This document shows positions 12,798-35,485 of a stretch of DNA of 64,000 bases, one piece after another (within the stretch, counting starts at the first letter, position 1; the number at the start of each line of letters is the position of its first letter). This stretch comes from an uncultured Pseudoduganella sp. GTDB lineage: Bacteria; Pseudomonadota; Gammaproteobacteria; Burkholderiales; Burkholderiaceae_D. The position numbers were made by a program, and so were the translations under genes. The DNA lies in the NCBI GenBank assembly GCA_966211685.1, contig CBIHOX010000011.1, positions 7,649 through 71,648 on the forward strand, read 5' to 3'. Below the pieces are notes generated by a model. That model saw only the letters and a list, made by a program, of their open reading frames with translations, did not search any database and had not been told where the DNA came from.

Positions 12798-12899
12798 GTA
12801 AAGCCAGTCAGGTGCAGTGCCAAATCATGAAATTATGACAGAACGCACCGGCCGCATGCACCACATGGCATCCCTGCCCCACCATGCATGCCGCAGCGC

Positions 12900-14825: not shown

Positions 14826-14835
14826 GGTGCCTCCA

Positions 14836-14871
14836 CAAGAAAATACCCCGGCAGGCGGGCTGGCCGGGGTA
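14836..14871 (-). terminator. Terminator-like hairpin immediately upstream of P4
   Basis: Minus strand TACCCCGGC-cagcccgcct-GCCGGGGTA followed by TTTTCTTG. Confidence 0.5.
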
Positions 14872-14875
14872 CTTG

Positions 14876-14903
14876 ATTGTATGCCGAAAAGAATTCCTGT
14901 TAG
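14876..14903 (-). promoter_or_regulatory. Putative sigma70 promoter of P4 (conserved with the P5 promoter)
   Basis: Minus strand CTAACA-ggaattcttttcggca-TACAAT; 22 of 24 nt identical to 19331-19354. Confidence 0.55.
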
Positions 14904-14949
14904 AAGCCGGAATCACAGGAATCGCGGTGGCGATGCGTGCACGCCACCA

Positions 14950-17900
14950 TCAGGCAAATCCCGTATAAGGCTGATAATTGAAACCGGAACCGATCAGTGT
15001 CGCCAGCGCCGCCTGGTTTTCCGGACTTTCACTGAACGCGGCCAGCACGGCCGGCACGGTCGCGAGTTTCTTGTCGAGCACGTTGAGCCAGAATGCATAA
15101 CCGCCCGCGTCCGGTGTGCGGTGCAGGACGTTCTGGTACATGCGGTTCAACAAATCCTCATTGGTGGGATTGGCGCCATACAGGGCCTTGAATTCCGGGG
15201 AATTCACGAATCCGGCCGACACGTCCAGCTGCGATACGCCATGGTCCATGACGGCGATCCAGAACCCCAAGCCGCCCGCGTCGGGCGCGCGGTCGAACGC
15301 GGCCTGGTACATGCGGTACGCCTGCCCCGCCACGCCGGTGGCGCCGGTATCGAACGCCATGGCGCCGTCAGTGAACAACAGGCGCTCGACGTGGGCCAGC
15401 AGATCCTGCCCGCCGGTCGCCTTGGTGACGACGATCTCGCCATTGCTGGTGACTTGCGCGGAAAAGCCGCTGCGCACGCCCTGGTAGCTCACCACGTCGA
15501 GCCCGGCGCCGCCATCGAAGATGTCGCTGCCCAGGCTGCCCACCAGCGTATCGTTGCCGCTGCCGGCCAGCAAATCATCGTTGCCCAGCGTGCCGGTCAA
15601 CGTGGTTGGCTGGTTCGATGGCGCGCTGCGGGTATAAAAATCATACGTATTGGTGCCCGCATACAGGTTGCCTGCCACATCCGTGATGGCGCCGGCGCCC
15701 ACCACCAGCTTGTATTGTTTGCCGGCCACCAGCGCGGCGGTCGGATCGACCGTCAGCGTGGCGCCATTGATGGCCAGGCGCGGGCTGGTGGCCGCGCCGA
15801 AGGTTTCCACCACGGTGCCGTCGGCCAGCACCAATTGCAGGGTGCCCAGGCCGCGCTTGATGTTTTCCGAGAACGTCACCGTGATATTGCTGTTCACCAG
15901 CACGTTGCTGGCGCCATCGGCCGGATCGAACGACACCGCCACCGGCGCCACGAGGTCGAGCTGGCCGGCCGACAGGCTGTAGCCGCCGATGGTATTGCCG
16001 GCGCCGCTGGCCGACGCGTAATAAGTCCCGGCCGTGACGGGACTGTAAGTCACGCGGGCATTGAGGCCGCCGCCACTGTTGTCATCGCTGGTCAGCAGCG
16101 CGCCGTTGCTGTTGTAGAGGCGCAGGATGGGGTCGATTTCACTGCCCTCGGCGGCGGCCAGGTTCAGTGCATAGGTGGCGCCCGCGTTCAGCGTGACGGC
16201 GAACCAGTCGGCGTCGCCCGCGGTTTCCACGAAGCCGGCCGCACTGATACCCGGCACCAGCTTGCCGGTGGTGGCCGTGGTGGCGGCGTAATCGTCCGGG
16301 GCCGCGGTCTGTACCGCCGTCACGGTATAGCCGCCGGTGCTGCTGTTGAGCGTACCGGCCGACACGTAATACGTGCCGGACGCGGTGGCCCGGTACGTCA
16401 GCTTGGCGTTGACGCCGCCACCGCTGTCATCGTCGCTGGCCAGCAAAGTGCCGCTGCCGTTATACAGGCGCAGCAAGGGATCCAGCGCGCTGCCATTGGC
16501 CACCGATACGGCAAACGTATAGGTGGCGCCGGCCGTGAGCGTGACGGCGAACCAGTCCGCGTCGCCTGAGGCTTCCACACTGCCGGTGACGGTACTGCCC
16601 AGCACCAGCTTGCCGGTGGTGGCCGTGGTGGCCGCATAATCGTCGGCCGCCGCCGTCTGCGCGGCAGCCACGCTGTAGCCGCCGGTACTGGTGTTGAGCG
16701 CGCCGGCCGAGACGTAGTACGTGCCGCCCGTCAGCGCCTGGTATGACAGTTGCGATGCGCCGCCGGTGCCGGCTACGCCGGTGGCCAGCAGGGCCCCGGT
16801 GCTGTCATACATTTTCACTAGTGACGACAGCGCGCTGCCGGCCGTTGGCGTCTGGTCGAAGCGGTATGTGACGCCGGCCGCGAGGGTGACGGCAAACCAG
16901 TCGGTGTCGCCGGACACTTCGACGCTGCCGGCGGTCTTGCCGCCGACCGTCAATTTGCCCGTGGTGGCGGCGGACGATGCGAAATCATCGGGCGCCGCGG
17001 TCAGCACGGCCGCCACGCTGTAGCCGCCTGTGCTGGTGTTGAGCGCCCCGGCCGACACGTAATACGTGCCGCCCGTCAGCGCCTTGTACGACAATTGCGA
17101 CGTGCCGCCGCTGCCGGCGGCGCCAGTGGCCAGCAAGGCCCCGTTGCCGTCATAGATTTTCACTTGCGCCGACAGCGCGCTGCCGGCCGACGGCGCCTGG
17201 TCGAACCGGTACGTGGCGCCGGCCGTCAGGGTCACGGCAAACCAGTCGGCGTCGCCGGCGGTTTCCACCGTGCCGGCGCTGCTGCCACCCACCGCCACGG
17301 CGCCGGTGGTCGCGGTGGTGGCCGCATAATCGTCGGCCGCAGCCGTCAGCACGGCCGCCACGCTGTAGTTGCCGGTGGAGGTATTGGTGGCGCCGGCCGA
17401 CACGTAATACGTGCCGGCCGTGGTGGCCTTGTACGACAGTTGCGACGCCCCGCCGCTGCCGGCTGTGCCGGTACCCAGCAATACGCCGCTGCCGCTGTAG
17501 ATCTTCACTTGCGGCGACAACGCGCTGCCGCTGGCGGGCGACTGGTCGAAGCGGTACGTGGCGCCGGCCGCCAGGGTCACTGCGAACCAGTCGGCGTCGC
17601 CCGCGGTTTCCACGCTGCCGGTGGCCGCGCCGCCCACCGTCAATTTGCCGGTGGTGGCAACGGTGGCCGCGTAATCGTCAGCCGCCGCGGTCAGCACGGC
17701 CGCCACGCTGTAGTTGCCGGTGGAGGTATTGGTGGCGCCGGCCGACACGTAATACGTGCCGGCCGTGGTGGCCTTGTACGACAGTTGCGACGCCCCGCCG
17801 CTGCCGGCTGTGCCGGTACCCAGCAATACGCCGCTGCCGCTGTAGATCTTCACTTGCGGCGACAACGCGCTGCCGCTGGCGGGCGACTGGTCGAAGCGGT

Positions 17901-19290
17901 ACGTGGCGCCGGCCGCCAGGGTCACGGCAAACCAGTCGCTGTCGCCCGACGTTTCCACGCTGCCGGTCGCGGCCCCGCCGACCGCCAGCACGCCGGTGGT
18001 CGCGGTGGTGGCCGCATAATCGTCGGGTACGGCGCCCCAGGTGCGCAAGTCCACCACCTTGTCGCTGAACGAGGCATATTCGATATCGGCCAGCGTATCG
18101 GTACCGCCCGCGGCCGTGACGATGGTGGCCTGTTTGGTGACGGCGTTATACGTGATGGTGGCGGCCGAAGACAGGCCGCTGAACGCGGCGGTATCGTTGC
18201 CCAGGCCGCCCTGCAGCGTATCGTTGCCGGCGCCGCCGGTCAGGCTGTTGTCGGCGTCATTGCCGATCAACAGGTCGTTGCCGCTGCCGCCAATCGCGTT
18301 TTCAATCACGCAGCCATACGCAATGCCGAGGTTGTCGGTGCCGTCATAGGTCGGCAGTTGGGCGCCGCTAAAGCCCGACGTCGACGCGGACGCAATCGTG
18401 ATCGATGAATAATGGCCGGCCTGCAAATCGATCGTGCAACCGGCGGAAAAATTCGCCACCGAAATGGTATCGGTGCCGCCCGCATCCCAAATGGTGCGCA
18501 GGAAGGGTGTCGAGGAGTCGAAGGTATAGGTGTTGTTGCCGGTCATGTACGACGTGTTGGCGCCATACAGGTACTGGATCGCGGCGATGTCGTCCACCAT
18601 CGGCGTATCCGGATAAATGTACTCGTAGTTATAAAACCGGCTGTTGCCGCTGCTCGTGATATAGCCATACAGGCTGTGCGCGGCGTTGGTGTACGACATC
18701 ACCGTGTATTGCAGCGAATCCGCCGCCCCGGTCAGGACCGGACTGTCTTCGAACGGGTGTTTCAAGCCCAGCGCGTGGCCGATTTCATGCATCAGCAGGC
18801 TGTAGTTGAATTCACCGGCGCTCCACGATCCACTGGTGATGCTGCTGATGTTGGCATTGATCCAGACGTCGCCACCGCTCGGGTAATAATTGTTGGGGTA
18901 CGACGCCCAGGCGCCAGCGGTGGAAGGCAGCGCCGACGACCAGGCAAAGCGGATGTCGCCGACAGTGGTGCTGGTGTCGACGGACTTCGTAAACGTCAGG
19001 TTGGCCACGGACGCCCATGCCTGCAGGGCCGCGGTCGCGGCAGCCTGCTCCGTGCTGTTCAAGCCATAGTGCTGGGTCGCCTGGTGTTCCTGTGCGTCAG
19101 AATAGTCGGAACTGCCGTTGGGACCGACGAACGTCGCGGTCCCCGCATCGGCCCACGGGAAACTGTAGGTAATGGTGGCGCCGGTGCCGACGGCGCCGCC
19201 CCATTTAATGCCGGCTAACAAAGCATTAATGATGAGTTGCGAACTGTCGGCAACGGAAGTGGTACTGCTGGCGGAACTCGGCGATGGCAT
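14950..19290 (-). CDS. Serralysin-like metalloprotease P5: 6 PPC-like repeats, 1 Ig-like domain, C-terminal DUF4214-type domain
   Basis: HEIGHALGLKH, TVMSY, RTX repeats, six DD(Y/F)A repeats, DUF4214-type tail. Confidence 0.9.
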   Translation of the reverse strand: MPSPSSASSTTSVADSSQLIINALLAGIKWGGAVGTGATITYSFPWADAGTATFVGPNGSSDYSDAQEHQATQHYGLNSTEQAAATAALQAWASVANLTFTKSVDTSTTVGDIRFAWSSALPSTAGAWASYPNNYYPSGGDVWINANISSITSGSWSAGEFNYSLLMHEIGHALGLKHPFEDSPVLTGAADSLQYTVMSYTNAAHSLYGYITSSGNSRFYNYEYIYPDTPMVDDIAAIQYLYGANTSYMTGNNTYTFDSSTPFLRTIWDAGGTDTISVANFSAGCTIDLQAGHYSSITIASASTSGFSGAQLPTYDGTDNLGIAYGCVIENAIGGSGNDLLIGNDADNSLTGGAGNDTLQGGLGNDTAAFSGLSSAATITYNAVTKQATIVTAAGGTDTLADIEYASFSDKVVDLRTWGAVPDDYAATTATTGVLAVGGAATGSVETSGDSDWFAVTLAAGATYRFDQSPASGSALSPQVKIYSGSGVLLGTGTAGSGGASQLSYKATTAGTYYVSAGATNTSTGNYSVAAVLTAAADDYAATVATTGKLTVGGAATGSVETAGDADWFAVTLAAGATYRFDQSPASGSALSPQVKIYSGSGVLLGTGTAGSGGASQLSYKATTAGTYYVSAGATNTSTGNYSVAAVLTAAADDYAATTATTGAVAVGGSSAGTVETAGDADWFAVTLTAGATYRFDQAPSAGSALSAQVKIYDGNGALLATGAAGSGGTSQLSYKALTGGTYYVSAGALNTSTGGYSVAAVLTAAPDDFASSAATTGKLTVGGKTAGSVEVSGDTDWFAVTLAAGVTYRFDQTPTAGSALSSLVKMYDSTGALLATGVAGTGGASQLSYQALTGGTYYVSAGALNTSTGGYSVAAAQTAAADDYAATTATTGKLVLGSTVTGSVEASGDADWFAVTLTAGATYTFAVSVANGSALDPLLRLYNGSGTLLASDDDSGGGVNAKLTYRATASGTYYVSAGTLNSSTGGYTVTAVQTAAPDDYAATTATTGKLVPGISAAGFVETAGDADWFAVTLNAGATYALNLAAAEGSEIDPILRLYNSNGALLTSDDNSGGGLNARVTYSPVTAGTYYASASGAGNTIGGYSLSAGQLDLVAPVAVSFDPADGASNVLVNSNITVTFSENIKRGLGTLQLVLADGTVVETFGAATSPRLAINGATLTVDPTAALVAGKQYKLVVGAGAITDVAGNLYAGTNTYDFYTRSAPSNQPTTLTGTLGNDDLLAGSGNDTLVGSLGSDIFDGGAGLDVVSYQGVRSGFSAQVTSNGEIVVTKATGGQDLLAHVERLLFTDGAMAFDTGATGVAGQAYRMYQAAFDRAPDAGGLGFWIAVMDHGVSQLDVSAGFVNSPEFKALYGANPTNEDLLNRMYQNVLHRTPDAGGYAFWLNVLDKKLATVPAVLAAFSESPENQAALATLIGSGFNYQPYTGFA
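17345..17925. repeat. 236-bp direct repeat, 345-bp period, inside P5
   Basis: 17345-17580 and 17690-17925 look identical base for base on manual comparison. Confidence 0.85.
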
Positions 19291-27600: not shown

Positions 27601-28928
27601 GCAACCGACTTGGTCGCGCCGGTAGCAGCGATTTCGTCAGTGTTACCACCAGCAACGGCAGCGTTGTACGCGTCGGTAGCAGCTTTGGCATCGGCTTGTG
27701 CGGTGGTCAGCACGCCTTGGGCTGCGTCGGATGCGGCTTTGGCATCGTTTGCTGCGGTGGTCAGAGCGGCAACGTCAACAGCGGCAGCGGCCGTTTTCAG
27801 GGCAGCGGCAGCGTCTTGGTCGATCTTGATCTGGGCAGCAGCGGTGGTAGCAGCAGCGGCCTTGGCGGTAGCGTTGGCGTTAGCGGTGGTAACGGCAGCT
27901 TGTGCGTCGATCACGGCTTGCACCAGTGGCTTCTCAGCAACAGCAGCGGCTACGTGGGCAGCAGCGTCGGTCACCAGCTTGGCAGCAGCGGTCTGAGCAG
28001 CAGCAGCGTCTGCAACAGCTTTGATTGCCAGCGCGTCGTCAGCGGTGGTGGCGGTTTTCAGTGCTTTGGCCAGGTAGTTGTCGGCAGCGGCTTTCGCGGT
28101 GTCGGCAGCGGTCTTGGCAGCGTCGGCAGCAGCTTTCTCGGTGTCGGCAGCGGTCTTGGCAGCGTCAACCTTGGCGATGGTGTCCGAACCTTCCAGGGCA
28201 ACTTTAGCAGCTGCGGCAGCGGTAGCGGCGGTAGCGGCAGCGGTGGCGGCAGCGGTTACTGGCGCGGTCAGGGCGGCGGCAGCCAGGTTCGCGTCGAACT
28301 CGGCAGCAGCGTTGGCGTCGTAGGTGCGCAGCACTTCGTTGGTCACCAGTGCCAGGGCAGCAGGTGCGGTAGCAGCAGCCAGCGAGGCAGCGTCCTTAAC
28401 CGAGTTCAGGAACGACGTACCCCATGCGTTTGCCTGTGGGCCGCTGTAAGCCAGTTGCAGGGCAACGCTGTCAGCGATTTTTGCGGTGAACGCGGTAGCA
28501 GCAGCCAGCTTGCTTGCAACGGTTTCAACGTCTTGGCCTTTTGCGTTCGAGAACATCGTGTTCAGCGTGAAGCTGACAGCTTGCGCTTTGACTTCGGCTT
28601 TCTCAGCAGCGGTCAGTTTCGTGTTGGCGGCGTTGGCGGCATCAACACTGTTCAGGTAGTCGGTGTAGAAGTTCAGGCCTTCCTGGTCCGGCAGACGACC
28701 GAACGAGTTCTGGTACATCTTGGCAACCAGTTGCTGGTTGCTCAGTTTCGGCGTTACATAGATCGCCTTGTACTCTTCGTTGTTGGCAAAGAAGTTTGCC
28801 ACGGCTTTCATGTCGATCTTGTTTGCAGCCAGCAGATCTTCCCAAAACTTCAAACCGGCTGGGTCAGCGGGACGGTTGTAGTAAGCGATATACAGTTTTT
28901 GCAGATCGGAGGTGTACTGTGTTGCCAT
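21606..28928 (-). CDS. Giant S-layer-like T1SS substrate (2440 aa): N-terminal SapA/DUF4214-type domain, ~490-aa Ala-rich stalk, Thr/Gly/Asn-rich beta-helix region with RTX motifs
   Basis: N-terminus DLQKLYIAYYNRPADPAGLKFW...NQQLVAKMYQNSFGRLPDQEGLNFY. Many GGxGxD motifs, no signal peptide, RBS AGGAG, high-expression codon bias, and adjacency to sapC and a T1SS gene. Confidence 0.85.
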   Translation of the reverse strand: MATQYTSDLQKLYIAYYNRPADPAGLKFWEDLLAANKIDMKAVANFFANNEEYKAIYVTPKLSNQQLVAKMYQNSFGRLPDQEGLNFYTDYLNSVDAANAANTKLTAAEKAEVKAQAVSFTLNTMFSNAKGQDVETVASKLAAATAFTAKIADSVALQLAYSGPQANAWGTSFLNSVKDAASLAAATAPAALALVTNEVLRTYDANAAAEFDANLAAAALTAPVTAAATAAATAATAAAAAKVALEGSDTIAKVDAAKTAADTEKAAADAAKTAADTAKAAADNYLAKALKTATTADDALAIKAVADAAAAQTAAAKLVTDAAAHVAAAVAEKPLVQAVIDAQAAVTTANANATAKAAAATTAAAQIKIDQDAAAALKTAAAAVDVAALTTAANDAKAASDAAQGVLTTAQADAKAATDAYNAAVAGGNTDEIAATGATKSVADFNLAKAQQDAATKLAASNTAAANLTAGNKTIADAAAAVAKVPTTIANAKTAADAAVAAAADAKTAADALKAAADKTVNAADNTAAATAVTNANTVVTAAAAAKTVVDDAIKAGEDAVEAAAQAISDAKKGAYTTALATAKTDADAAAAATKAYVDAKAAFDLSKSVANATALATAATNEKTAIEKALASVVVANTAAADFAAVVGTTKSTADDVASAATAAAIKAINDPLVAAQLLVAAHQKVAQDAVVEAGPQSKALTISATDVVIAGLNDDTIIGQTGQSTTLQSSDSIDGGVGTDTLRVVTSSTNNAAITNASQVQGFVVKNIEVLEVQAQAPAAEGATILGLENVDSALKTVRSSSSNNNLTVKNIGQIVDLEVANALNASDLTLAYKAAAVAGAADTQKILLNGNSTGTIKIGTNTDALVGAGNTGIETVAITTSGAASVVGALNVDASKVTIAGNQNLTITAGLNGTVGTIDAGAFTGNLNITSGNYVTLAGTALSVTSGSGSDTLDVSANVGKSNVNAGAGDDTIKLGANYRNSDTVNGGTGTDTVSTTTIASVTVDADTFANTTNVENLTFTDATSGVLDAGNGGTKASGSTDHVINTFSFDNGTNGAVALNNVANNVVVNVNARAATTGFAGADNLTVTHATDTAADNLTLNLTTDTANYATGALLFSQAENVTVTAKDANNGAVGNTVETITAASLDGANLTKLTLSGEDKVVITAAIGSTKLATVDATALSGGVSFAATAAAAQSVTVNSGTGVDTITLGNGTSTGTFTVNSGSGADVITLNSAAGSTATHTVTTGAGAGSVTLTGGANGKITVGAGGWTVTTAAGKDTITGGAGNDVIIGGNGDDSIVGGDGNDTITAGTGAVSGVEGVDYLDGGAGDDTFNFTYSAVVATEGITSADTVKGGAGTDTVKITTDAAVLNDAIFNNWDSVENLVLSNGNNTINVNAIANKNGLKDITVGTGDDSVNVGEGFSSNLTINLGAGGNDTVNASLATGLMTVRSTAASLSGTDVITGGTNTGDKLVVVADNAVANLNGVTKIENVFVEANGANGVSITTVNSNLEAGKTLNVDASALTNAAAAFNFVGTAELDGSYSVTGGAGADRILGGAKVDTIIGGAGNDSILGGAGKDVLTGGTGTDRFYIVASDVGADNADTITDFVSGTDKIVYTSAVTYVGAYSSFGAAQGAISAGGTIDAVLDTATHTLWIDVNNDGALNANDIQLNLSNSPASLAQADFEVGTLGSSYTVDFTANATNNVFKDGVTTGAVNAAATLPTDTLTISGTSTIGNLTGFNTVTLAAGLALTATKAQFDTLAAATSFTATGAQSVTISDVATLTGNAAIESYTVQTGSTFTLGAAAQNVSAAGNVTVNTGAITAPTGTLALAGAGDTLVVTTTGTSLAGINGGADTTAETVTINGIAAVSMTAAQHVAVTTFNATGTNTVTVTTALTDTGDAAVESYVLATGSNFTLGAAAQNVSAAGNVTVNTGAITTPTGTLALAGAADSLVVTTTGTNLAGINGGAALTAESVTIDGLAAVTMSATQHNAITTLSATGANTVTLSGAGAVTGKAGVETYNLGTDGRTFTVLASDTGVNVVSAGTDTVNVGGNTVTGTYTLQALDSITATTGANIAGVNAGAVTGATVLNLTGNLSLTSAQYAGFTTINAAGGADSVTFTDTAITAVAANANVESYTLSDAAGNAISVTGITGAQSVTGTAATDVVTVGVSGTFTGTLNGEVTAADIVSLATGSNIAGATIGAGFTTATIASGGSVSMTVAQHNAFTTINAAGTETVTFTTAGTATGNVNVENYVLANGANNFTFHAATAQTATAGTGTDTFTLTTLAGGAATGITTGADTITGFTATGASADVLKVASAGVTAFQTVTNPAGTAITVATGGVIEIESAAGSILAPTQVGDGLAVETLIASALGTTASGNLTVVAYGGGNAYVYAVTSTAAGADATTANIVVDLIGTLSGVTADSLTSTNFSA

Positions 28929-29029
28929 TTAAAGGGCTCCTAAGGGATTCATTGAAAGTCAATATTGCAGGGGCTCAAACCCGCTACAACCCAACGTACC
29001 GAATACTCGCAGATGGATTTGCGTACTAA

Positions 29030-29045
29030 TGTGACGGTCATCACA
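29030..29045. promoter_or_regulatory. Perfect CRP-type box TGTGA-CGGTCA-TCACA upstream of the S-layer gene
   Basis: taaTGTGAcggtcaTCACAaaa. With the centre set at -41.5, the minus strand gives an extended -10 TG-C-GAGTAT at 29011-29003. Confidence 0.85.
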
Positions 29046-29287
29046 AAACAACACAAATCCTCTGTTTATTAGTAATTTATTCACTAAAAAAATACACGGC
29101 GGGACATTATCCGAGATGGCAAGAGGTAAAGCAAGGATTAGCAACTTTCCCGGCAGGGTACCCCCAACGCAATCCTTGCCAGCCCCATGGACAGCGCCAG
29201 CCGGCCGTTAACAGCGCGGCTAACTTACCATAAAGGCACTGATAACGGGCGCTACAGATGGGTCTGAATAAAAAAGTCACAAGCATA

Positions 29288-29330
29288 TAAAAAGCGCAAG
29301 CAAGGCTAATGCCGTGCTTGCGCTTTTATT
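29288..29330. terminator. Terminator downstream of the FecR-domain gene (probably bidirectional)
   Basis: AAAAGCGCAAGCA...TGCTTGCGCTTTT stem with A/T runs on both sides. Confidence 0.75.
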
Positions 29331-29369
29331 AACTTTGATTGGCGTGCAATTAGCGCACGCGAATTGGCG

Positions 29370-30782
29370 TCACTTGGGCTTGGTCCAATACGTGGCGCCT
29401 TCCGTGGTGCGGGCCGCATCGAGACGCCCCTGGAACAGGTAGGCCGCAGTGCCCCCATTCTCCGAACTCAACACCCCTGTCACATTGACATTGCTGTTGT
29501 TGTTGTAACGTGGCGACTCTCCATAGAAGCGGCCATCGCTCCCCACCGTGCCGCTGGAACGCATGTTGAAACGCTCGGCCTGCGCCACCAGGTCAAAACT
29601 GGTGGTGTACGTTTTTTGGTCAAAATTGAAATTCAATACACCGTTTTCCACTTTGGCCACTTCCGCCGGCGTGAAACTGTCGCGCAAAATATACGCTTCA
29701 CTGTCTTTCAAGGTGAAACCAGCTGAACTGCGTTCCGGTATTTGATAATCGGCGCCCGGCGTGCGGAACAAGGCAAAGTTGCCTTTCATGTCCACCAGCT
29801 CCGCACCGCTCTTCAGCATGGCGACCAGGTCCACCTTGGCGGTTTTATCGAGCAACGGTTGCCAGCGTCCCCAGACGATCTTCCGCTCAGGCTGCGGCGG
29901 TTCAGGCGGCGTCACCACGGGCGGGTCCACCACCGGCGGCGTCACCACCGGCGGGACCACCACCACCCCGCCGCCCGTGTCGGGTTTTTCCAGCACTGGC
30001 GGCACGGTAACGATCGGGTCCGGAGTCGTCGTTGGCGGCTGCTGCACCACTTGCGCCACGCGCTGCTTCAACTCCTGGTCTTTTTTTGCTTCCAGGCTGG
30101 GTTCCGGCGGCCCGCCCGCCATGCCGCCTTTAGGTTCATCCGTGCGTGGCGGCGCCACCACATCCGGCGCCAAAGTGCCAGACGGCAACAATTGTGGCGC
30201 CGCCTGGCCGCGGCGCACCTGCAACAGCAGGCCGCGCTGCGCGGCGGACAATTCACGGCTGGCCTTGCCTTCGCATGGGCCGGTACCGTCCGGGCTGCAC
30301 GCGCCGGCAAATCCACTAATAGTAATACCGCCAGACAGCACGGTGACCCGGGTTACTTCCTGGTCGGCCGACACGGCGAAATCCGTCCCACGCACCCCAA
30401 TGGCCGCCACCGGCGTATTGAAACGGAAATTCTGGCGCGCCTGCTTGACGGCTTCGCCGGACTGGCTGCGCGCCACCCCTTCCAGCAATTCCAGCTTGAT
30501 GCGGGTATTGGCCGGGTTGGCGGCGTCGATGTGGTAATTGACGATGCGGGCCTTGCTCGACGGCCGGACAATGAACAGGCCGTTGTCGATGGTTTTCACA
30601 TACACATAGCCATCGCCTCCGGTGACCAGCATATCCCCTTCCCGCACCACGCCGTTCAATTCGGCGGCGCGGTCGGCGACCTTGACCTGGCCTGCGACAA
30701 AAATGATTTTCCCGGCATCGGCCGCGAAGGCTGTTGCGCCCCACAAGCCGAGCCCGACGATAGCTAATAGATTACGCAACAT
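29370..30782 (-). CDS. Exported FecR-domain protein with Pro-rich linker and C-terminal beta-rich domain
   Basis: Signal peptide MLRNLLAIVGLGLWGATAFA, FecR-type ...FRFNTPVAAIGVRGTDFAV...VTVLSGGI, linker PVVTPPVVDPPVVTPPEPPQPE, alternating aromatic/polar strands at the C-terminus. Confidence 0.85.
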   Translation of the reverse strand: MLRNLLAIVGLGLWGATAFAADAGKIIFVAGQVKVADRAAELNGVVREGDMLVTGGDGYVYVKTIDNGLFIVRPSSKARIVNYHIDAANPANTRIKLELLEGVARSQSGEAVKQARQNFRFNTPVAAIGVRGTDFAVSADQEVTRVTVLSGGITISGFAGACSPDGTGPCEGKASRELSAAQRGLLLQVRRGQAAPQLLPSGTLAPDVVAPPRTDEPKGGMAGGPPEPSLEAKKDQELKQRVAQVVQQPPTTTPDPIVTVPPVLEKPDTGGGVVVVPPVVTPPVVDPPVVTPPEPPQPERKIVWGRWQPLLDKTAKVDLVAMLKSGAELVDMKGNFALFRTPGADYQIPERSSAGFTLKDSEAYILRDSFTPAEVAKVENGVLNFNFDQKTYTTSFDLVAQAERFNMRSSGTVGSDGRFYGESPRYNNNSNVNVTGVLSSENGGTAAYLFQGRLDAARTTEGATYWTKPK

Positions 30783-30837
30783 ATGATTCCTTTTCCTTCT
30801 GGCGCCCGGATATGGTGATGGGCGATGGCGCGGATGT

Positions 30838-30867
30838 GCCGGATTACGCTGCGCTAATCCGGCCTAC
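30838..30867. repeat. GTAG REP
   Basis: gccggattacgctgcgctaatccggcctac, identical to 9865-9894. Confidence 0.85.
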
Positions 30868-30967
30868 ATCACAAGCTGCAGGGGCGGATCGCGGTCCGCC
30901 GTTGCTTGAGGGTCTGCAGGCGGCCTTCCCCTGTTACCGTAATTATCCCTGTGGATACACAAGTTAC

Positions 30968-30983
30968 AGTGACGACCATCACA
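30968..30983. promoter_or_regulatory. Near-perfect CRP-type box AGTGA-CGACCA-TCACA in the fecR/cyclase divergent region
   Basis: 9/10 consensus match. GATAAT on the minus strand (30947-30942) lies at class II distance, facing the FecR-domain gene. Confidence 0.7.
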
Positions 30984-31128
30984 TTGTACCGAACTTGCCT
31001 GCCTCGGCCGCCAAGGTTACACATTGTTGCAAAGCAGGGTCTCCATATATATAGAGGGTAGGAAGGCTGACGTATAATAAAAGCTCAGTCTCCCCATCTT
31101 CCAGCGCAGCACTTTCAGGCGATCCCCT

Positions 31129-33066
31129 TTGTTGAGTTTTACGGCATTGTCCACGTGGCGTTCCTTTTTCCGTATACCGGCCATCCCGGCGCATGCGGTG
31201 CTGGCCGCGATCGGGCTGGCTGCCGTGCTGTTGACCGCGGCCGCCCAGTGGGGCATGCCGGCCGGCGCCACCTTCCCCGCCGATGAATGGCTGCGCGACC
31301 GCATCCTGCGCCTGCGCAGCGCGCCCACGCCGGAGCCGCGCATCCTGGTGGTCGATATCGATGAAGCCAGCCTGGCAGAAGTAGGCGCCTGGCCGTGGCC
31401 GCGCGAGCGGCTGGCCACTTTGGCGGAAATCCTGCTGACCCATTACGAAGCACGCGGCGTGGCCTTCGATATCCTGCTGCCCACGGCCGGCGATCCGCAG
31501 GGCGACCAGCGCCTGATGATGCTGGCGGCGCATGGGCCGCTGGTGCTGGCGCAGGCATTCGATTATCCGGAAGCCCAGCGCCAGCCGCTGCGCGCCGGAC
31601 AGCTCGGCGGCGCCCGCCCCGGCCGCGGCACGGCCCAGCTGGAAGCTTCCGGCTACATCGCCAACCACCCGCAATTCGCTAATGCGCGCAATATCGGCAA
31701 CATCGGCTTCCTGCCCGATGCCGATGGCGCGCTGCGCCGCGTGCCGCTGCTCACCAGTTTCAATGGCGCGCTGTATCCTTCGCTGTCGCTGGCGCTGCTC
31801 GATTGCTGCAGCGGCGGCCCCAAACTCGTGGTGACGGACCCGGCGCCGTTGCGGGTGGATTTCCAGCGCGACTGGAATGCCTATACCGTGGTCAGCGCCG
31901 CCGACATCCTCGACGAACGCATTGCCCCCGAGAGCGCTTCCGGCCGCCTGGTGCTGGTCGGCTCCTCGTCGATGGGCACCGGCGACCGCGTGACCACACC
32001 ATTGGCGCGCAACCGCCCCGGCCTCGGCGTGCAGGCCGCCGTGCTGTCGACCATCCTGGACCGCCAGCAAGGACTGGCGCCCCGCCCCTGGCCGGGCCGC
32101 CTGATCGCCTGCGTGTTTACCGCCATCGTGGCGCTGGTGAGCGTGTGGAGTTTCCCGCGCCTGTCCGCCATGGCCAGCGTCAGCCTGCTCGGCGCCGGCA
32201 TGGCGGCGTGGCTGGGCGTGGCGTGGGTGGTGTTGCCGCACGACGACGCCATGGTCAGCAGCGCCCCGCTGGCCAGTTGCCTGTTCTTGCTGGCGTTTGC
32301 CATTCCTTACCAGTGGCACGTCAGCCAGCGCCGTTCGCGCCGCCTGCTCGATACCCTGCGCCAATATGTGGCGCCCGCCGTCGTGACGGAACTGTTGCGC
32401 AGCGACATGGCCGATCCCTTGCAGCCGCGCCTGCTCGACGTCACCACCCTGATTGCCGACCTGCAGGGTTACACGTCGCACGTGGAAGCGCTGCCGCTCG
32501 ATGAAGCCGCGGAATTGACCAGCAGTTTCCTCGATTGCCTCACCGCCCCCGTGATTGAACAGCAGGGCACCTTGGATAAATATACCGGCGACGGCTTGGT
32601 GGCATTCTGGGGTGCGCCGTTGCCCAATGATAACCATGCTGATTTGGCATTGGACGCGGCACGTGATATTGTAGCCAGAGTGCAACAATTGAGCGCCCAG
32701 CGCCGTGCCGCCGGCTTCCCGCCGCTGCGGGTGCGGATCGGCATTGAAAGCGGCCCCGCCATGGCGGGCGATTTCGGCAGCGTGTTCCGCAGCGTGTATA
32801 CCGCGGTCGGCGACAGTGTGAACACGGCGGCGCGCCTGGAGCAGGCCGCCAGGGATTTCCCGCACGACGTCATCATTGGCGCCGGTACAGCACAACGCAC
32901 GCGCCGCCACCGGCTCATGTTGCTGGGCGAACGGCAATTACGCGGCAAAGATAAACCAACCATTCTTTATACGTTTGACAGCAGCATGGATGTCTCCCTC
33001 ACCAACGGCCTCACTGGCGCCAGCCAGGCTGCCGCCACGCCGGCAAAGGCAGCGTTTACTGCATGA
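31129..33066 (+). CDS. CHASE2-domain class III adenylate cyclase (start codon uncertain)
   Basis: N-terminal TM, CHASE2 motifs ILVVDIDEASL...GAWPWPRERLA...FDILLP...D.DGALRR, three TMs, cyclase motifs LIADLQGYT, DKYTGDGLVAFWG and YTAVGDSVNTAARLE. Both Asp residues, the ATP-specifying Lys/Thr and the Asn/Arg are present. Confidence 0.92.
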   Translation: MLSFTALSTWRSFFRIPAIPAHAVLAAIGLAAVLLTAAAQWGMPAGATFPADEWLRDRILRLRSAPTPEPRILVVDIDEASLAEVGAWPWPRERLATLAEILLTHYEARGVAFDILLPTAGDPQGDQRLMMLAAHGPLVLAQAFDYPEAQRQPLRAGQLGGARPGRGTAQLEASGYIANHPQFANARNIGNIGFLPDADGALRRVPLLTSFNGALYPSLSLALLDCCSGGPKLVVTDPAPLRVDFQRDWNAYTVVSAADILDERIAPESASGRLVLVGSSSMGTGDRVTTPLARNRPGLGVQAAVLSTILDRQQGLAPRPWPGRLIACVFTAIVALVSVWSFPRLSAMASVSLLGAGMAAWLGVAWVVLPHDDAMVSSAPLASCLFLLAFAIPYQWHVSQRRSRRLLDTLRQYVAPAVVTELLRSDMADPLQPRLLDVTTLIADLQGYTSHVEALPLDEAAELTSSFLDCLTAPVIEQQGTLDKYTGDGLVAFWGAPLPNDNHADLALDAARDIVARVQQLSAQRRAAGFPPLRVRIGIESGPAMAGDFGSVFRSVYTAVGDSVNTAARLEQAARDFPHDVIIGAGTAQRTRRHRLMLLGERQLRGKDKPTILYTFDSSMDVSLTNGLTGASQAAATPAKAAFTA

Positions 33067-34325
33067 CGCATCGCCTTGCCCTGACAGCCTGGCTGCTGGC
33101 CATGGCCGCGCTGCCGGCCGCGGCGCAGGACGCCCCCCGGGAGCCCGCGCCGCCGCTGCCCGTGGTGGAAATACCCGGTCCGCACCAGCAGGATTGGTAC
33201 CAGGCCGCGCTGCAGTCGATTGCCGAGGGCCGCAAGCATGACGCCAGCGCGGAACTGGAGCGTGTCATCCGCAATGAACCGCTGCACGCCGGCGCCTGGC
33301 TGGACCTGGCGCTGATCCAGTGCAGCCTGGGCCACGCCGAGGAAGCCTTCCGCCTGTTCGGTATCATCGAGGAGCGCTTCAAGCCGCCGCCGGCATTCCT
33401 GGAATTGATCGCCAGTTACCGCCAGCAGGGATGCGACCGGTGGGAAGTGCAAAGCCAGGCCAGCCTCACGCTGGCGCGCGGCATCGACCAGAACGTCAAC
33501 CAGGGCCCGAGCGCCAGCAGTTACTCGGTCGGCACCGCCGCGCTCAGCGTGGAATATCCGGTGTCGCCGGAATTCAGGCCGAAACACGACCAGTATACGT
33601 CGCTGTCCGGCGATTATCTGCGCGACCTTACCAGCAATGGCACGGTCGGCATCGTGCAATTCCAGTTCCGGCGCAATGATGAATTGAAACAATATGACAA
33701 TGCATCGCTGTTCGGCAGCGTCGAGTCGCCGTGGCGCCTGGGCAACTTCAGCGGCCGCCATGTCGGCACGGCCGGCCTGCTGACACTGGGCGGCCACCTG
33801 TACCAGCGCCAGGCCCAGTTGCAGGAGCGCGTCACGGTACCCCTGCCCGGCAAGGTGCAATTGACGATGATGACCAGCATGACGCGCCTGAATTACGTCA
33901 CGTTGAACAATTTCGATTCCAGCACGGCGGAACTGCGCGGCGTGCTCAGTTACAGTGCCGGCGCCGGCAGCGTGCGCGCCGCCATCAGCCTGCTCAATGA
34001 CCATGCGATGGCCGACCGCCCCGGCGGCAACCGCCATGGCCAGGTGCGCTCGGTGTTGTTCCGCCAGAACCTGGGCATGCGCATCACGGGCGAACTCGGC
34101 TACACCGACCAAACCTGGCAAAGCGCCACCGCATATGCGCCGGGCGCACTGGACATCATCCGGCAGCAGCGCACGCAATCGCTGACGGCCAGCCTGTTTT
34201 ACCCGATCGGCAAGAACCAGATGGTGCAGCTGGAAGCGCGGAAAGTACGAAATCAGGAAAACATTCCGATCTTTCAGTACAATAATCGGCAGTTACAGCT
34301 AAGTTGGCAGTGGCAGGGTTTGTGA
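33063..34325 (+). CDS. Exported TPR plus outer-membrane beta-barrel protein (Slam/NsrA-like architecture)
   Basis: Signal peptide, TPR-like helices (EPLHAGAWLDLALIQCSLGHAEEA), amphipathic beta strands ending QLQLSWQWQGL. ATGA overlap with the cyclase stop. Confidence 0.75.
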   Translation: MTHRLALTAWLLAMAALPAAAQDAPREPAPPLPVVEIPGPHQQDWYQAALQSIAEGRKHDASAELERVIRNEPLHAGAWLDLALIQCSLGHAEEAFRLFGIIEERFKPPPAFLELIASYRQQGCDRWEVQSQASLTLARGIDQNVNQGPSASSYSVGTAALSVEYPVSPEFRPKHDQYTSLSGDYLRDLTSNGTVGIVQFQFRRNDELKQYDNASLFGSVESPWRLGNFSGRHVGTAGLLTLGGHLYQRQAQLQERVTVPLPGKVQLTMMTSMTRLNYVTLNNFDSSTAELRGVLSYSAGAGSVRAAISLLNDHAMADRPGGNRHGQVRSVLFRQNLGMRITGELGYTDQTWQSATAYAPGALDIIRQQRTQSLTASLFYPIGKNQMVQLEARKVRNQENIPIFQYNNRQLQLSWQWQGL

Positions 34326-34334
34326 GTGTAAAGA

Positions 34335-34679
34335 ATGGCAAATGAAATTTGGGGTATCGCTTTACTGGTTGGTATCCTGGGCCTGTCGGCCGGTTGCCTG
34401 GTCCCCAACCGGTGGTTGCCTGCCCGCATGCCCAACGATAAGTTGATGCATTTCGTCGCGTTTGCCGTCCTGGCCGGAGTGGCCATGCAAATCGCACAAA
34501 CCCGTATCGAAGCGGCCTGGTGGATGCTGGGCTTGCTGGTGGCGGGTTGGATAATTGAATGTCTGCAACAATTGCTGCCGGACCGCGGCTTCAGCTGGCG
34601 CGACATTGCCGCCAACGCGGCCGGCATCGTATTTGCCGCCGGCTGTACCCTGGCCTACCAAAGCCTGCCGATTTCGTGA
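34335..34679 (+). CDS. VanZ-like small membrane protein
   Basis: NDKLMHFVAFAVLA...IECLQQLLPDRGFSWRDIAANAAGI, a VanZ-like pattern. Confidence 0.8.
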   Translation: MANEIWGIALLVGILGLSAGCLVPNRWLPARMPNDKLMHFVAFAVLAGVAMQIAQTRIEAAWWMLGLLVAGWIIECLQQLLPDRGFSWRDIAANAAGIVFAAGCTLAYQSLPIS

Positions 34680-34732
34680 CGCAGATCACACGATACTGCT
34701 CGACTGACGCCGCTCCATGAGATAATCACTGC

Positions 34733-35485
34733 ATGAGTTCGACGCCCCTGCCTGCCAACGCGCCTGCGCAAACCGCCACTGCCGCGCCTTCCGCCGCTCC
34801 CGCCAGCGAAGAGCGCAATGTCCAGGTGCACCTGCGCAAAATCCCGCTGCTGGCGAATTTGAACGATGAGGAAATTGCCCGCGTGAAGGCGGACATCCGC
34901 ATCCGCCAATACGCCAAGCGTGAAGTCGTGCTGCACAAGGGCGGCAGCGGCGACGGCTTGCTGTTCCTGCTGGCGGGCCAGTTGCAAGTCATCGACGTGA
35001 CCGAGGATGGCCGCGCGATCGGCTTGCGCATGCTGGTGCCGGGCGACTTTTTCGGCGAAATCGCGCTGATCAACAATACCACCCGCTCCGCTTCCGTGGT
35101 GGCCACCACCGACGTGCTGGTGGCGTTCCTGCCGGCGCCGACCGCGATGCACCTGTTTTCCCATTCGCCGTCGGTGGCGCGCCAGATGCTGCAACACCTG
35201 GCGCAAAAGATCCAGCGCGACTCGGAATTCCGCGCGCTGCTCAGCATCAACAACACGGCCAAGCGCATTTACACCTACCTGGTGCTGATGCAAAAGAAAA
35301 ACCCGGACGGCACCGTGGTGGAAAACCTGCCGACTCACCAAGACATTGCCAACATGATCAACACCAGCCGCGAAACCGTGACGCGCGCGCTGTTGACCTT
35401 GGTGCAACAGGGTATCGTGCAAAAAGAACCGAATCGCCTGGTCATCAAGGATCCGGAAGCGCTGCAAAAGCTGGTGCAGGGCTGA
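34733..35485 (+). CDS. Crp/Fnr family cNMP-binding transcriptional regulator
   Basis: cNMP pocket GDFFGEIAL...RSASV; HTH THQDIANMINTSRETVTRAL; no FNR-type Cys cluster. Confidence 0.93.
   Translation: MSSTPLPANAPAQTATAAPSAAPASEERNVQVHLRKIPLLANLNDEEIARVKADIRIRQYAKREVVLHKGGSGDGLLFLLAGQLQVIDVTEDGRAIGLRMLVPGDFFGEIALINNTTRSASVVATTDVLVAFLPAPTAMHLFSHSPSVARQMLQHLAQKIQRDSEFRALLSINNTAKRIYTYLVLMQKKNPDGTVVENLPTHQDIANMINTSRETVTRALLTLVQQGIVQKEPNRLVIKDPEALQKLVQG

Follow-up and report, generated by a model that had tools for sequence, protein, structure and literature searches.

Comparative sequence evidence points to a dedicated, locally wired cAMP-Crp circuit that probably governs the cell surface of a soil-dwelling member of the Massilia/Duganella group (genome 6.39 Mb). 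The window analysed, a stretch of 64,000 nucleotides of this genome, harbors the genes of a membrane-bound adenylate cyclase with a Crp regulator of its own, of an outer-membrane pore resembling Slam and of a FecR-headed protein, the likely cargo of that pore. This module and its associated TGTGA-N6-TCACA boxes are real and far beyond chance.

All genes named in an earlier note on this DNA are present, as judged by Pfam and NCBIfam matches, and the module lies where that note placed it, between the gene for a giant RTX/DUF4214 protein (the ‘coat gene’, 21606-28928) and Wzm/Wzt (from 35780; Table 1). The Wzm/Wzt/FkbM cluster, a conserved neighbor of crp in relatives, is predicted to serve ABC-dependent O-polysaccharide export, and the VanZ-like gene is found in roughly half of the relatives. 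The GT4 and SapC genes lie downstream of the coat gene in the same orientation; SapC is located elsewhere in relatives and so does not belong to the conserved module.

Table 1. Features of the window, with strand and basis of assignment.
Feature	Position	Strand	Basis or details
prtD, 5' part (T1SS ABC permease/ATPase)	1..1257	-	TIGR01842
prtD operon promoter	1369..1409	-	Perfect Crp box TGTGACGTACATCACA, 1394-1409; -10 CATAAT, 1374-1369
Five serralysin-like RTX metalloprotease paralogues, C-terminal DUF4214	1593..19290 (1593-5633, 5717-9841, 10005-12275, 12900-14825, 14950-19290)	-	Pfam
GT4 glycosyltransferase	19370-20617	-	PF12000, 211 bits
SapC-family gene	20652-21467	-	PF07277 SapC, 210 bits
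Giant RTX/DUF4214 secreted protein (coat gene)	21606-28928	-	Pfam
Coat-gene promoter	29003..29045	-	Perfect Crp box TGTGATGACCGTCACA (minus-strand reading), 29030-29045; extended -10 TGcGAGTAT, 29011-29003
Intrinsic terminator 3' of FecR gene	29285..29330	-	Fold -28.9 kcal/mol, z -5.45, then UUUUU
Exported FecR-headed protein	29370-30782	-	PF04773, 38 bits
REP-like 30-mer in FecR-gene 5' leader	30838..30867	+	
FecR-gene promoter	30942..30983	-	9/10 Crp box, 30968-30983; -10 GATAAT, 30947-30942; class II geometry
CHASE2 + class III adenylate cyclase	31129-33066	+	PF05226, 153 bits; PF00211, 33 bits
TPR + 14-strand beta-barrel protein	33063-34325	+	AlphaFold2, hhalign
Small VanZ-like membrane protein	34335-34679	+	PF04892, 32.9 bits (cut-off 30.1)
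Fourth box, 9/10, just 5' of crp	34675-34690	+	
Crp-family regulator	34733-35485	+	cNMP_binding, HTH_Crp_2
Wzm	35780-36580	+	
Wzt, C-terminal glycan-binding domain	36580-37806	+	
FkbM methyltransferase	37803-39200	+	

Boxes had been reported before the coat gene, the type I secretion (T1SS) gene prtD and the FecR gene; two of these are perfect and that of the FecR gene matches at 9/10 positions. The two perfect boxes are the only ones in the entire 6.39-Mb genome, a weight-matrix scan of which puts the three window sites in its top three places, and the window contains four boxes with ≤1 mismatch, versus 1.24 expected. The fourth, missing from the earlier list, scores 16.7 in the weight matrix and is centered 38.5 nt from a GATAAT (34721-34726), a spacing that is not class II; the 19 loci examined from the genus have no box there, and its role is doubtful. 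None of the five protease genes has a box of its own (≤1 mismatch, stretch 1593..19290).

The proposal had been made dependent on relatives that keep the module also keeping the boxes, and a survey of 80 named Oxalobacteraceae loci (1.47 Mb) found both the boxes and the synteny with DUF4214/RTX genes retained. These loci contain 138 perfect boxes (0.47 expected; none for a control palindrome), 127 of which sit before RTX, FecR or prtD genes at tight distances, including 59 upstream of the coat gene and 35 upstream of prtD. In complete genomes of relatives, the perfect boxes that fall within the locus number 3/4, 3/4, 3/6, 2/3 and 2/2. Gene order is rearranged in four other GTDB families of the order, with the module still linked. 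All three perfect boxes of genome G230 lie upstream of the RTX gene, FecR gene and prtD, all four of G280 in or next to the module (at RTX/Wzm, crp and prtD genes, and next to a second CHASE2/Slam-like pair), and the single perfect box of each of G263, G349 and G083 upstream of a DUF4214/RTX gene. Crp and pore are jointly absent from G001, G011 and G014. Counting against the circuit, G065 keeps the four genes, with no box at ≤1 mismatch and a recognition helix reading RESVSR.

Judged by sequence geometry, the boxes are centered at approximately -41.5 at all three promoters, which is the class II arrangement; at prtD, ∼40 nt separate the box center from the inferred start site. Box-anchored logos place the -10 element 27.5-30.5 nt from the box center, with the same geometry in other families, and no recognizable -35 element is seen at any of the three promoters, either in the logos of relatives or at the window sites. 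At prtD-type sites (50 sites, including some few coat-gene sites placed here by mistake) the box is followed at fixed spacing by gATAAT, an arrangement repeated in G230 and G280, and at coat-gene sites by TGnCATnAT, again at fixed spacing (58 sites, 58/58 with a perfect box). The FecR gene is preceded in 65/67 loci by a box with ≤1 mismatch, then GATAAT, an AAGGGGA Shine-Dalgarno sequence and the ATG, which in relatives lies ∼55 nt from the box center; a REP-like 30-mer specific to the source genome extends this leader to ∼150 nt. Class II geometry assigns the box in the divergent region to the FecR promoter and not to the cyclase operon, which is probably Crp-independent because it has no box at activating distance. 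The terminator 3' of the FecR gene is predicted to keep its transcript apart from the coat-gene promoter.

The Crp carries both the GE..RSA pocket for cAMP and the RETVTR recognition helix originally read from it; across 86 orthologues, each is either unchanged or altered by conservative substitutions only. The box matches the E. coli CRP consensus exactly, as it would if these were ordinary targets of a global catabolite-control CRP beside which crp lies by coincidence. Such a reader is extremely improbable: the window Crp reaches 80 bits, below the 266-bit cut-off of the CRP equivalog model, and on sequence grounds is not the global CRP orthologue; it is the only one of 15 cNMP-binding ORFs in the genome with an RExxxR helix; and more than ten genomes have perfect boxes nearly confined to the module gene set, the opposite of a global regulon. 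Box confinement and the lone RExxxR Crp thus contradict a global CRP, and comparative evidence strongly supports the local regulon of the earlier note, in which this Crp recognizes the boxes and thereby governs coat gene, T1SS operon and FecR gene.

It is unlikely, though less so, that Crp represses the coat genes, or that its ligand comes from elsewhere (cAMP made by other cyclases, or cGMP). Box and -35 position overlap, the extended -10 (TGn) of the coat gene could work without an activator and the box could then repress, and the global CRP of Vibrio represses rtxBDE and rtxA1 (PMC12846084); Clr of S. meliloti binds cGMP as well as cAMP (PMC10127613), and the genome encodes five class III cyclase domains, one of the four outside the module also with CHASE2. 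Against this, the three promoters lack a -35 element and those of FecR and prtD a TG extension, the spacing matches the canonical class II activating position within 1-2 nt at hundreds of sites, and wherever a family has cyclase and Crp, the two are linked. Activation by cAMP from the neighboring cyclase appears the better account. That enzyme comprises a transmembrane (TM) segment, CHASE2 (36-336), three further TM segments and a catalytic domain (438-610) whose adenine pair is K/D; its catalytic and ATP-specifying residues (D, K, D, R, D, N, R), as claimed earlier, align to Spirulina CyaC (1WC0/1WC1, E 3e-26) and are kept in 72-74 of 74 orthologues. The description of the relay as ‘dedicated’ is supported for its output sites, which are nearly all local, and fails for cAMP, which is not private; with four other class III cyclase domains in the genome, the input need not be private either.

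The protein encoded between cyclase and VanZ-like protein is indeed a beta-barrel: an AlphaFold2 model (pLDDT 90) has helices at 40-122 followed by 14 long strands at 131-418. Its ATG overlaps the cyclase stop codon (ATGA), indicating translational coupling. A Pfam search, including Pfam's SlipAM model, returned no direct match, and hhalign against PF04575 proteins aligned 360 columns (98.6%, E 1e-15); by this profile homology it is distantly related to Slam/SlipAM (DUF560), the outer-membrane pore of type 11 secretion (T11SS). A likeness to NsrA, which the earlier note cites as part of a precedent, is not borne out: the protein has 420 aa, versus about 1200 aa in NsrA, where the barrel occupies residues 600-1200 (PMC7529298). 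BcsC, PelBC and PgaA are among its top Foldseek matches and glycan genes adjoin the module, as expected of a BcsC/PgaA/PelB-type polysaccharide export channel, a role we consider very improbable: the TM-scores are only ∼0.4 and equaled by generic porins, the homology to Slam is full length, and what accompanies it from family to family is the FecR-barrel protein rather than glycan genes. To our knowledge, Wzm/Wzt O-antigen routes use no such channel. In G098, moreover, a bona fide PF04575 pore adjoins a FecR-domain gene.

The FecR protein itself looks like cargo of the Slam-like pore. It has a Sec signal peptide and no lipobox cysteine, and its AlphaFold2 model (pLDDT 83) combines a FecR beta-sandwich (22-200), a disordered, Pro-rich linker of ∼90 residues (about 205-295) and a C-terminal handle plus 8-strand barrel (300-467). 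Foldseek relates the N-terminal domain to FecR/PupR anti-sigma regulators (6ovk_R) and the C-terminal domain, which no sequence family recognizes, to TbpB and the TbpB C-lobe. Both this T11SS cargo build and the Slam kinship of the TPR-barrel are new. With its Sec signal peptide and the lack of a lipid anchor, the protein resembles secreted T11SS cargo (Grossman et al., bioRxiv 10.1101/2024.09.26.615229).

What the FecR protein and pore do for the circuit can be read in two ways. They may well be outputs only, a second Crp-induced surface or secreted component, with CHASE2 sensing alone or via other partners; we regard this as a serious possibility, somewhat short of probable. The sole direct evidence on the FecR gene is its conserved class II box, its product has the cargo architecture described above, and the circuit resembles the Clr/CyaD1-type cascade of Sinorhizobium meliloti, in which the FecR-domain protein SMc02177 (encoded next to cyaD1/clr), SMc02178 and the TPR protein SMb20495 are Clr targets dispensable for signal perception (PMC5498481), a precedent that argues for the FecR protein as output. 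This reading leaves unexplained why the pore gene lies inside the cyclase-crp operon rather than beside its Crp-controlled cargo, and what keeps the four genes together when gene order changes. More tentatively, the linear relay of the earlier note is possible: an outside cue would pass via a FecR/barrel sensor to periplasmic CHASE2 and turn the cyclase on, with Crp control of fecR as positive feedback. FecR and CHASE2 are neighbors in an unrelated Burkholderia system (a LysM-FecR + CHASE2 kinase operon, PMC5192318) as well as in cyaD1-smc02177, the FecR-CHASE2-pore genes of G065 are co-directional and tightly spaced, pore and cyclase genes are translationally coupled, FecR/PupR domains are known periplasmic signaling adaptors, and the Pro-rich linker could span the periplasm. 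However, the S. meliloti counterparts are dispensable for perception, and export of the entire protein through the pore, the way T11SS handles soluble cargo of the hemophilin type, would take the FecR head out of the periplasm; a relay from barrel or FecR protein to CHASE2 is purely conjectural.

The coat protein (2440 aa, 236.8 kDa, pI 4.2, no Cys) is rich in Ala, Thr and Gly and has no signal peptide; DUF4214 is N-terminal, and the first ∼200 aa are conserved throughout the relatives. By sequence it matches none of the solved S-layer proteins; composition and context make the ‘S-layer’ label plausible, and the protein is a candidate for a coat anchored on O-antigen or for an S-layer. In P. 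putida, Psh, likewise a DUF4214-RTX protein, is T1SS-exported and binds O-antigen (bioRxiv 10.64898/2026.09.02.748959). The putative exporter gene here, prtD (549 bits against TIGR01842, cut-off 510; likely start ATG at 1257), runs off the start of the window and is followed on contig C11 by genes for an HlyD-type MFP (PF13437) and an OEP/TolC-type protein (PF02321). The five DUF4214 metalloproteases are probably further T1SS cargo.

In the favored circuit, a producer operon would supply the CHASE2 cyclase, Slam-like pore, VanZ-like protein and Crp. A cue, presumably sensed by CHASE2, would activate the cyclase, and cAMP would load Crp, which would bind near -41.5 at the three -35-less promoters and activate them in class II fashion: those of the acidic 237-kDa RTX/DUF4214 protein, of its putative exporter (the prtD-MFP-OMF operon) and of the FecR-headed protein, whose C-terminal barrel marks it as likely cargo for display by the pore. 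Once exported, the RTX/DUF4214 protein, probably with the metalloproteases, would most likely coat the cell, perhaps as a lattice, held most likely by binding to the O-polysaccharide of the adjacent Wzm/Wzt cluster. As its sites stand almost solely before coat, exporter and cargo genes, the system looks like a private cell-surface cAMP switch.

The cAMP-Crp gene set and its surroundings are listed in the table below, and Pfam and NCBIfam searches recover all of the genes named in an earlier note, which had described a FecR-domain protein, a CHASE2 cyclase, a TPR-barrel protein and a Crp as a local cAMP relay apparently dedicated to an S-layer gene and its exporter. What that note had observed holds as a whole: genes and boxes (TGTGA-N6-TCACA, read as predicted Crp sites) are present, and the boxes occur beyond chance.

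Genes, promoter elements and protein domains of the cAMP-Crp gene set and its surroundings (window coordinates in nt, or residues of the protein where stated)
Feature	Position	Strand	Remarks
prtD, 5' part (T1SS ABC gene)	window start, likely ATG 1257	minus	TIGR01842
Five paralogous serralysin-like RTX metalloprotease genes	1593-19290	minus	C-terminal DUF4214
GT4 glycosyltransferase gene, then SapC-family gene		minus	
RTX protein gene	21606-28928	minus	2440 aa; N-terminal DUF4214
Exported FecR-domain protein gene	29370-30782	minus	strong terminator separates it from RTX gene
CHASE2 class III cyclase gene	31129-33066	plus	divergent from FecR gene
TPR protein gene	33063-34325	plus	ATG overlaps cyclase stop
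VanZ-like gene	between TPR protein gene and crp	plus	
Crp gene	34733-35485	plus	
Wzm, Wzt, FkbM and glycosyltransferase genes	after crp	plus	
-10 element, RTX gene	29011-29003	minus	TGcGAGTAT
-10 element, FecR gene	30947-30942	minus	GATAAT
-10 element, prtD	1374-1369	minus	CATAAT
FecR protein, FecR sandwich	residues 22-200		AlphaFold2
FecR protein, disordered Pro-rich linker	residues ~205-295		AlphaFold2
FecR protein, handle and 8-strand barrel	residues 300-467		AlphaFold2

Only two perfect boxes occur in the whole 6.39-Mb assembly, and both lie within the window (1394 and 29030); two further window sites match at 9 of 10 positions (30968 and 34675). In a genome scan with a weight matrix built from the sites of relatives, three window sites ranked first to third (32.7, 30.7 and 22.4 bits). 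The next matches, which lie next to a TetR gene, within a response-regulator gene and following an 804-aa ORF, were considered as further regulon members and set aside; we judge them to be chance occurrences or sites of other regulators. The fourth window box (34675, before crp) was likewise rejected as a target, its spacing being wrong and the position being boxless in the 19 loci of the genus that were fetched. As a GATAAT ends 7 nt before the crp ATG (window 34721-34735), crp may also be transcribed from an internal promoter as a leaderless mRNA.

The boxes are retained in relatives that carry the module. Across 80 named loci (1.47 Mb) of Massilia, Duganella, Pseudoduganella, Rugamonas, Telluria and related Oxalobacteraceae, in which the Crp is 71-95% identical, we found 138 perfect boxes against 0.47 expected from composition, and no occurrence of a reversed control palindrome in the same 1.47 Mb. 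Of the 138, 59 precede the RTX/DUF4214 gene, the box centre standing a median of 116.5 nt from the start codon, 33 the FecR gene (median 54.5 nt by the same measure) and 35 prtD; most of the other 11 occupy these same relative positions, with a downstream N-terminus that is unaligned or at the locus edge. Perfect boxes inside the locus make up 3/4, 3/4, 3/6, 2/3 and 2/2 of those in complete relatives, and nearly all sufficiently long loci show the same gene order (RTX, FecR, then divergently cyclase, barrel, (VanZ), Crp, Wzm, Wzt, FkbM).

In box-anchored logos from the relatives, each box is followed at constant spacing by a -10 element, which reads TGnCATnAT for the RTX gene, gATAAT for prtD and GATAAT for the FecR gene, where an AAGGGGA Shine-Dalgarno sequence and the ATG come next. 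The first -10 base lies 27.5-30.5 nt from the box centre, which sets the box near -41.5, and no -35 element appears in the logos. Class II CRP promoters have the galP1-type arrangement, and this is the predicted arrangement of all three promoters: as in E. coli, a 16-bp TGTGA-N6-TCACA box centred near -41.5 would replace the -35 element. At none of the three sites did a sigma-70 consensus scan find a complete promoter, as would be expected if they depend on an activator. Within the divergent region no -10 element facing the cyclase gene was found at class II distance from the box, and a perfect TATAAT (31073-31078) lies ~100 nt away from it. The box therefore appears to serve the FecR gene, on whose side alone a -10 element stands at class II spacing, and transcription of the cyclase-pore-VanZ-crp operon probably does not depend on Crp.

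A REP-like 30-mer, GCCGGATTACGCTGCGCTAATCCGGCCTAC, which resembles the ends of E. coli REP elements, is present in 25 genomic copies at ≤3 mismatches. Its four window copies (1484-1513, 9865-9894, 30838-30867 and 35562-35591) are all intergenic, and one copy lies in the FecR leader, between the Crp-box promoter and the start codon.

The regulator itself consists of a cNMP-binding domain (PF00027, 71.7 bits) and a C-terminal Crp-type helix-turn-helix (PF13545, 61.3 bits). Its cAMP-contact motif GE...RSA reads GEIALINNTTRSAS and its DNA-reading helix RETVTR, in keeping with the GE..RSA pocket and RE..R recognition helix of E. coli CRP; all 86 orthologues keep G, E, R, A and the two helix arginines unchanged, with S/T and T/S swaps at the remaining pocket and helix positions. 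Fifteen ORFs in the genome are predicted to bind cNMPs, and the RExxxR recognition helix is found in the window Crp only, the others being FNR-like or of other types. Given its score against the CRP equivalog model NF008732 (80 bits, cut-off 266) and just two perfect sites in the genome, the regulator is not an orthologue of the global E. coli CRP. It also differs from that protein in reach, with 2-6 perfect sites per genome (one in G263, G349 and G083, genomes of other families), most of them at or near the gene set, and in its predicted cAMP source, here a class III receptor cyclase instead of the class I Cya.

The cyclase combines a CHASE2 domain (PF05226, 152.8 bits, residues 36-336), flanked on both sides by hydrophobic segments read from the sequence, in agreement with a periplasmic sensor placed between transmembrane segments, with a catalytic domain (PF00211, 32.9 bits vs a cut-off of 21.9) that aligns residue by residue to Spirulina CyaC (1WC0/1WC1, E 3e-26). 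The catalytic and ATP-specifying residues that had been read from the sequence prove to be in place in this alignment (both metal Asp, the Lys/Asp adenine pair, and Asn/Arg), and the catalytic residues are kept in 72-74 of 74 orthologues; the product thus has the features that define class III adenylate cyclases and is predicted to synthesize cAMP. Four further class III cyclase domains are encoded elsewhere in the genome, so that the coupling of cyclase to Crp rests on conserved linkage and not on exclusivity. A second CHASE2 plus class III cyclase paralogue is located at C27:28758-30641, on another contig of this genome, and a third CHASE2 protein, cyclase-less, on contig C183. For the predicted local Crp regulon, comparative genomics could hardly provide firmer support; its input arm and ligand, the direction of control and the identity of the product as an S-layer are what we infer around it.

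The T1SS at the window start is of the PrtD/AprD type, with an ABC protein above the family cut-off (TIGR01842, 549 bits vs 510) and MFP and OMF genes (HlyD_3, 59 bits; OEP, 162 bits) in the operon, directly downstream of prtD on the contig. The rest of prtD (C11:6971-8904, in contig numbering) completes a protein whose C-terminus is a ~90-residue low-complexity Gln/Ala/Pro tail (QQQQQLQAQAQAQ...AAAAAAAAPAVPAAP), of a kind that is, to our knowledge, unusual among T1SS ABC proteins. The five proteases (641 to 1446 aa) have a C-terminal DUF4214 pair in common and vary in how many PPC and Big_5 repeats they carry; since in relatives the coat-gene box and the prtD box are only ~2-6 kb apart, these genes probably represent an expansion confined to this genome.

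The giant RTX protein (236.8 kDa, pI 4.2, no Cys, rich in Ala, Thr and Gly) has the attributes of a T1SS substrate, namely RTX repeats, no signal peptide, an acidic and Cys-free composition, and a T1SS nearby. A search of PDB sequences matched it to the RTX blocks of toxins, proteases and epimerases only, and to no solved S-layer protein. Its composition, T1SS context and adjacent Wzm/Wzt genes are reminiscent of RsaA-type systems: like Caulobacter RsaA and other RTX S-layer proteins it is acidic, Cys-free and Thr/Ala-rich, although it has no sequence match to RsaA structures. With Psh of Pseudomonas putida KT2440 it shares the combination of RTX and DUF4214, export (predicted here) through an AprD/PrtD-type T1SS, and O-antigen genes alongside. 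In contrast to both, it is much larger (2440 aa) and carries DUF4214 at its N-terminus; we know of no dedicated second-messenger regulator for either Psh or RsaA. DUF4214 is the sole part of the giant protein kept across relatives, and it recurs in the five proteases. For Psh, T1SS export, O-antigen binding and the masking of phage receptors have been shown (bioRxiv 10.64898/2026.09.02.748959). This precedent, together with the conservation of DUF4214 and its presence in the proteases, suggests that the domain is probably a glycan anchor and the product a surface coat; by analogy, we hypothesize that the coat may be an S-layer. The SapC-family gene was rejected as support for an S-layer or as part of the module, being located elsewhere in relatives and persisting in genomes that lack the module. 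Our literature search found no paper linking 'S-layer' with these genera, and none joining CHASE2 with an S-layer or a T1SS.

A Crp-family protein also binds upstream of rtx secretion and toxin genes in Vibrio (PMC12846084), as is predicted here from the boxes. The Vibrio regulator is the global CRP, a repressor tied to carbon status; the Crp described here appears to be private, and its promoter geometry is an activating one. Because control of the Vibrio rtx operons is repressive (PMC12846084), the sign of regulation here calls for caution.

For the TPR-barrel protein and the FecR protein only profile-profile and fold comparison were informative; when the barrel and the C-terminal domain of the FecR protein were compared directly with Pfam, NCBIfam and PDB sequences, nothing useful emerged. 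An AlphaFold2 model of the TPR-barrel protein (41 orthologues, pLDDT 90) predicts five TPR-like helices behind a signal peptide, and then a 14-strand barrel with long strands. A polysaccharide channel was considered and rejected, the Foldseek matches being to generic barrels only (BcsC, CymA, OmpG, PelBC and PgaA, all at TM ~0.4). Pfam as a whole matched nothing in the barrel part, and its SlipAM/Slam model PF04575 gave no match to the protein even at E 10 and none in this genome at a threshold of 1e-10. Nevertheless, hhalign of the 41 orthologues against 12 aligned PF04575 proteins from genomes of the same order gave 98.6% probability (E 1.1e-15), the 360 aligned columns covering both TPR and barrel, and in genome G098 both profiles hit one and the same ORF, after which comes a FecR-domain gene. 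At that locus (L153 9455-11557) the Pfam SlipAM pore is directly followed by a 259-aa FecR-domain protein, with no cyclase nearby; pairing of Slam-like pores with FecR proteins may thus predate and outrange the cAMP module.

The FecR protein is modelled (pLDDT 83) with a Sec signal peptide and no lipobox, and Foldseek relates its head to the FecR/PupR anti-sigma regulators and its tail to TbpB, the TbpB C-lobe and lipocalins. No Pfam family covers the C-terminal domain in any of 40 orthologues, and a profile of this domain matches no PDB sequence, so that its candidacy as secretion cargo rests on fold and adjacency; the modelled tail resembles the barrels of type 11 secretion (T11SS) cargo at the fold level only. 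Such cargo is built as effector, linker, pedestal and barrel (bioRxiv 10.1101/2024.09.26.615229), and like TbpB, fHbp and hemophilin the FecR protein would have a Sec signal peptide, a variable head, a disordered linker, a pedestal and an 8-strand barrel, next to a pore that shares N-terminal TPR helices, a 14-strand barrel and full-length profile homology with the Slam/DUF560/SlipAM family. We infer that this type 11 secretion pore with a FecR-headed cargo, as predicted from profiles and models, is a previously unrecognised component of the circuit. It departs from known T11SS in that the pore falls below the PF04575 threshold and is encoded in an operon with a cyclase and a Crp, and that the cargo head is a FecR domain, whereas the cargo known so far functions in host binding and in the capture of metal or heme. 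A survey of T11SS cargo (bioRxiv 10.1101/2024.09.26.615229) mentions neither FecR nor cyclases nor the Massilia-group genera, and a link of T11SS to FecR-domain proteins and cAMP signalling was not described in the literature searched.

Searching with the barrel-protein profile revealed full-length relatives in other GTDB families of the order, surrounded by the same four genes in differing orders; in all families examined, the FecR protein gene adjoins the pore gene. Two such genomes, G263 and G349, encode a Crp that is 42-43% identical, a CHASE2 cyclase, a FecR-barrel protein and a pore, in rearranged order, and each contains exactly one perfect box, 125-140 nt before a DUF4214/RTX gene of the locus. 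The sole perfect box of G083, whose module parts are spread over three contigs, likewise precedes a DUF4214/RTX gene, and all three of G230 precede the RTX gene, the FecR gene and prtD. Of the four perfect boxes in G280, one lies in the divergent RTX/Wzm region, one each at crp and prtD, and the last next to a second CHASE2/Slam-like pair (L156). The crp start codon of this genome has a perfect box ending 2 nt ahead of it (L149 11977-12015), which suggests crp autoregulation, unlike in the Massilia group. No site within one mismatch of the box occurs in G065, which keeps the module genes and has the recognition helix RESVSR. Crp and pore are both absent from three genomes of the genus. Second Crp copies (~70% identical) occur in L027 (G006:C1) and L111 (Massilia yuzhufengensis), with no cyclase, pore or FecR genes and no boxes nearby.

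The closest known system is the Sinorhizobium meliloti clr-cyaD1-smc02177-smc02178 locus, with CyaD2, CyaK and NsrA, in which clr is SMc02175, cyaD1 (SMc02176) encodes a CHASE2 cyclase and smc02177 a FecR domain. In both systems the gene of a CHASE2 class III cyclase neighbours those of a Crp-family regulator and of an exported FecR-domain protein. The FecR gene is activated by the regulator in S. meliloti (PMC5498481) and is a predicted target here, and both systems include an outer-membrane beta-barrel protein (PMC7529298). The Clr regulon, however, comprises dozens of genes (exopolysaccharide, motility) and its box is TGTT-N8-AACA, whereas here an E. coli-type TGTGA-N6-TCACA marks essentially three promoters, whose targets include a T1SS and its RTX/DUF4214 cargo. 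Judged by size and layout alone, NsrA (~1200 aa, barrel 600-1200; PMC7529298) differs from the 420-aa Slam-like protein, and the FecR protein here carries a TbpB-like C-terminal barrel.

This precedent bears on the part that the FecR protein and pore may play. The earlier note had proposed that an outside signal passes from barrel and FecR protein through the CHASE2 cyclase and cAMP to Crp; of this interpretation the local Crp regulon is sustained by the comparative evidence, and the sensory chain is weakened, since signal perception in S. meliloti does without smc02177, smc02178 and the TPR gene smb20495 (PMC5498481). Such relaying of a signal to CHASE2 is, in our view, doubtful. That the two proteins are outputs only is possible, if somewhat short of probable; the output arm is identical in either case. 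Extended to its full length, the proposal that they participate in input would make the T11SS pore and FecR-headed cargo a trans-envelope antenna that gates the CHASE2 cyclase and stands under positive feedback, with the private cAMP-Crp signal deciding whether to build a T1SS-exported, O-antigen-anchored RTX/DUF4214 coat (S-layer-like, and possibly phage-shielding like Psh). We offer this antenna model tentatively and consider it, taken whole, rather unlikely; if it is true, T11SS would be a signalling device, beyond a secretion route.

Few second-messenger circuits in bacteria can be read end to end from sequence. The circuit described here appears to comprise a receptor cyclase, its own Crp and a three-promoter regulon whose boxes are nearly the sole consensus sites in the genome, and it is widespread, occurring in Massilia, Duganella, Pseudoduganella and Rugamonas, common bacteria of soil, rhizosphere and freshwater, as well as in other betaproteobacterial families. 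It offers a compact and directly testable model for the working of CHASE2 sensors, and bears on how specificity may be kept among several cyclases within one cell, on how a very costly surface coat and its exporter may be switched, and on a possible role for T11SS past nutrient capture, tied here to FecR-domain proteins and cAMP signalling.
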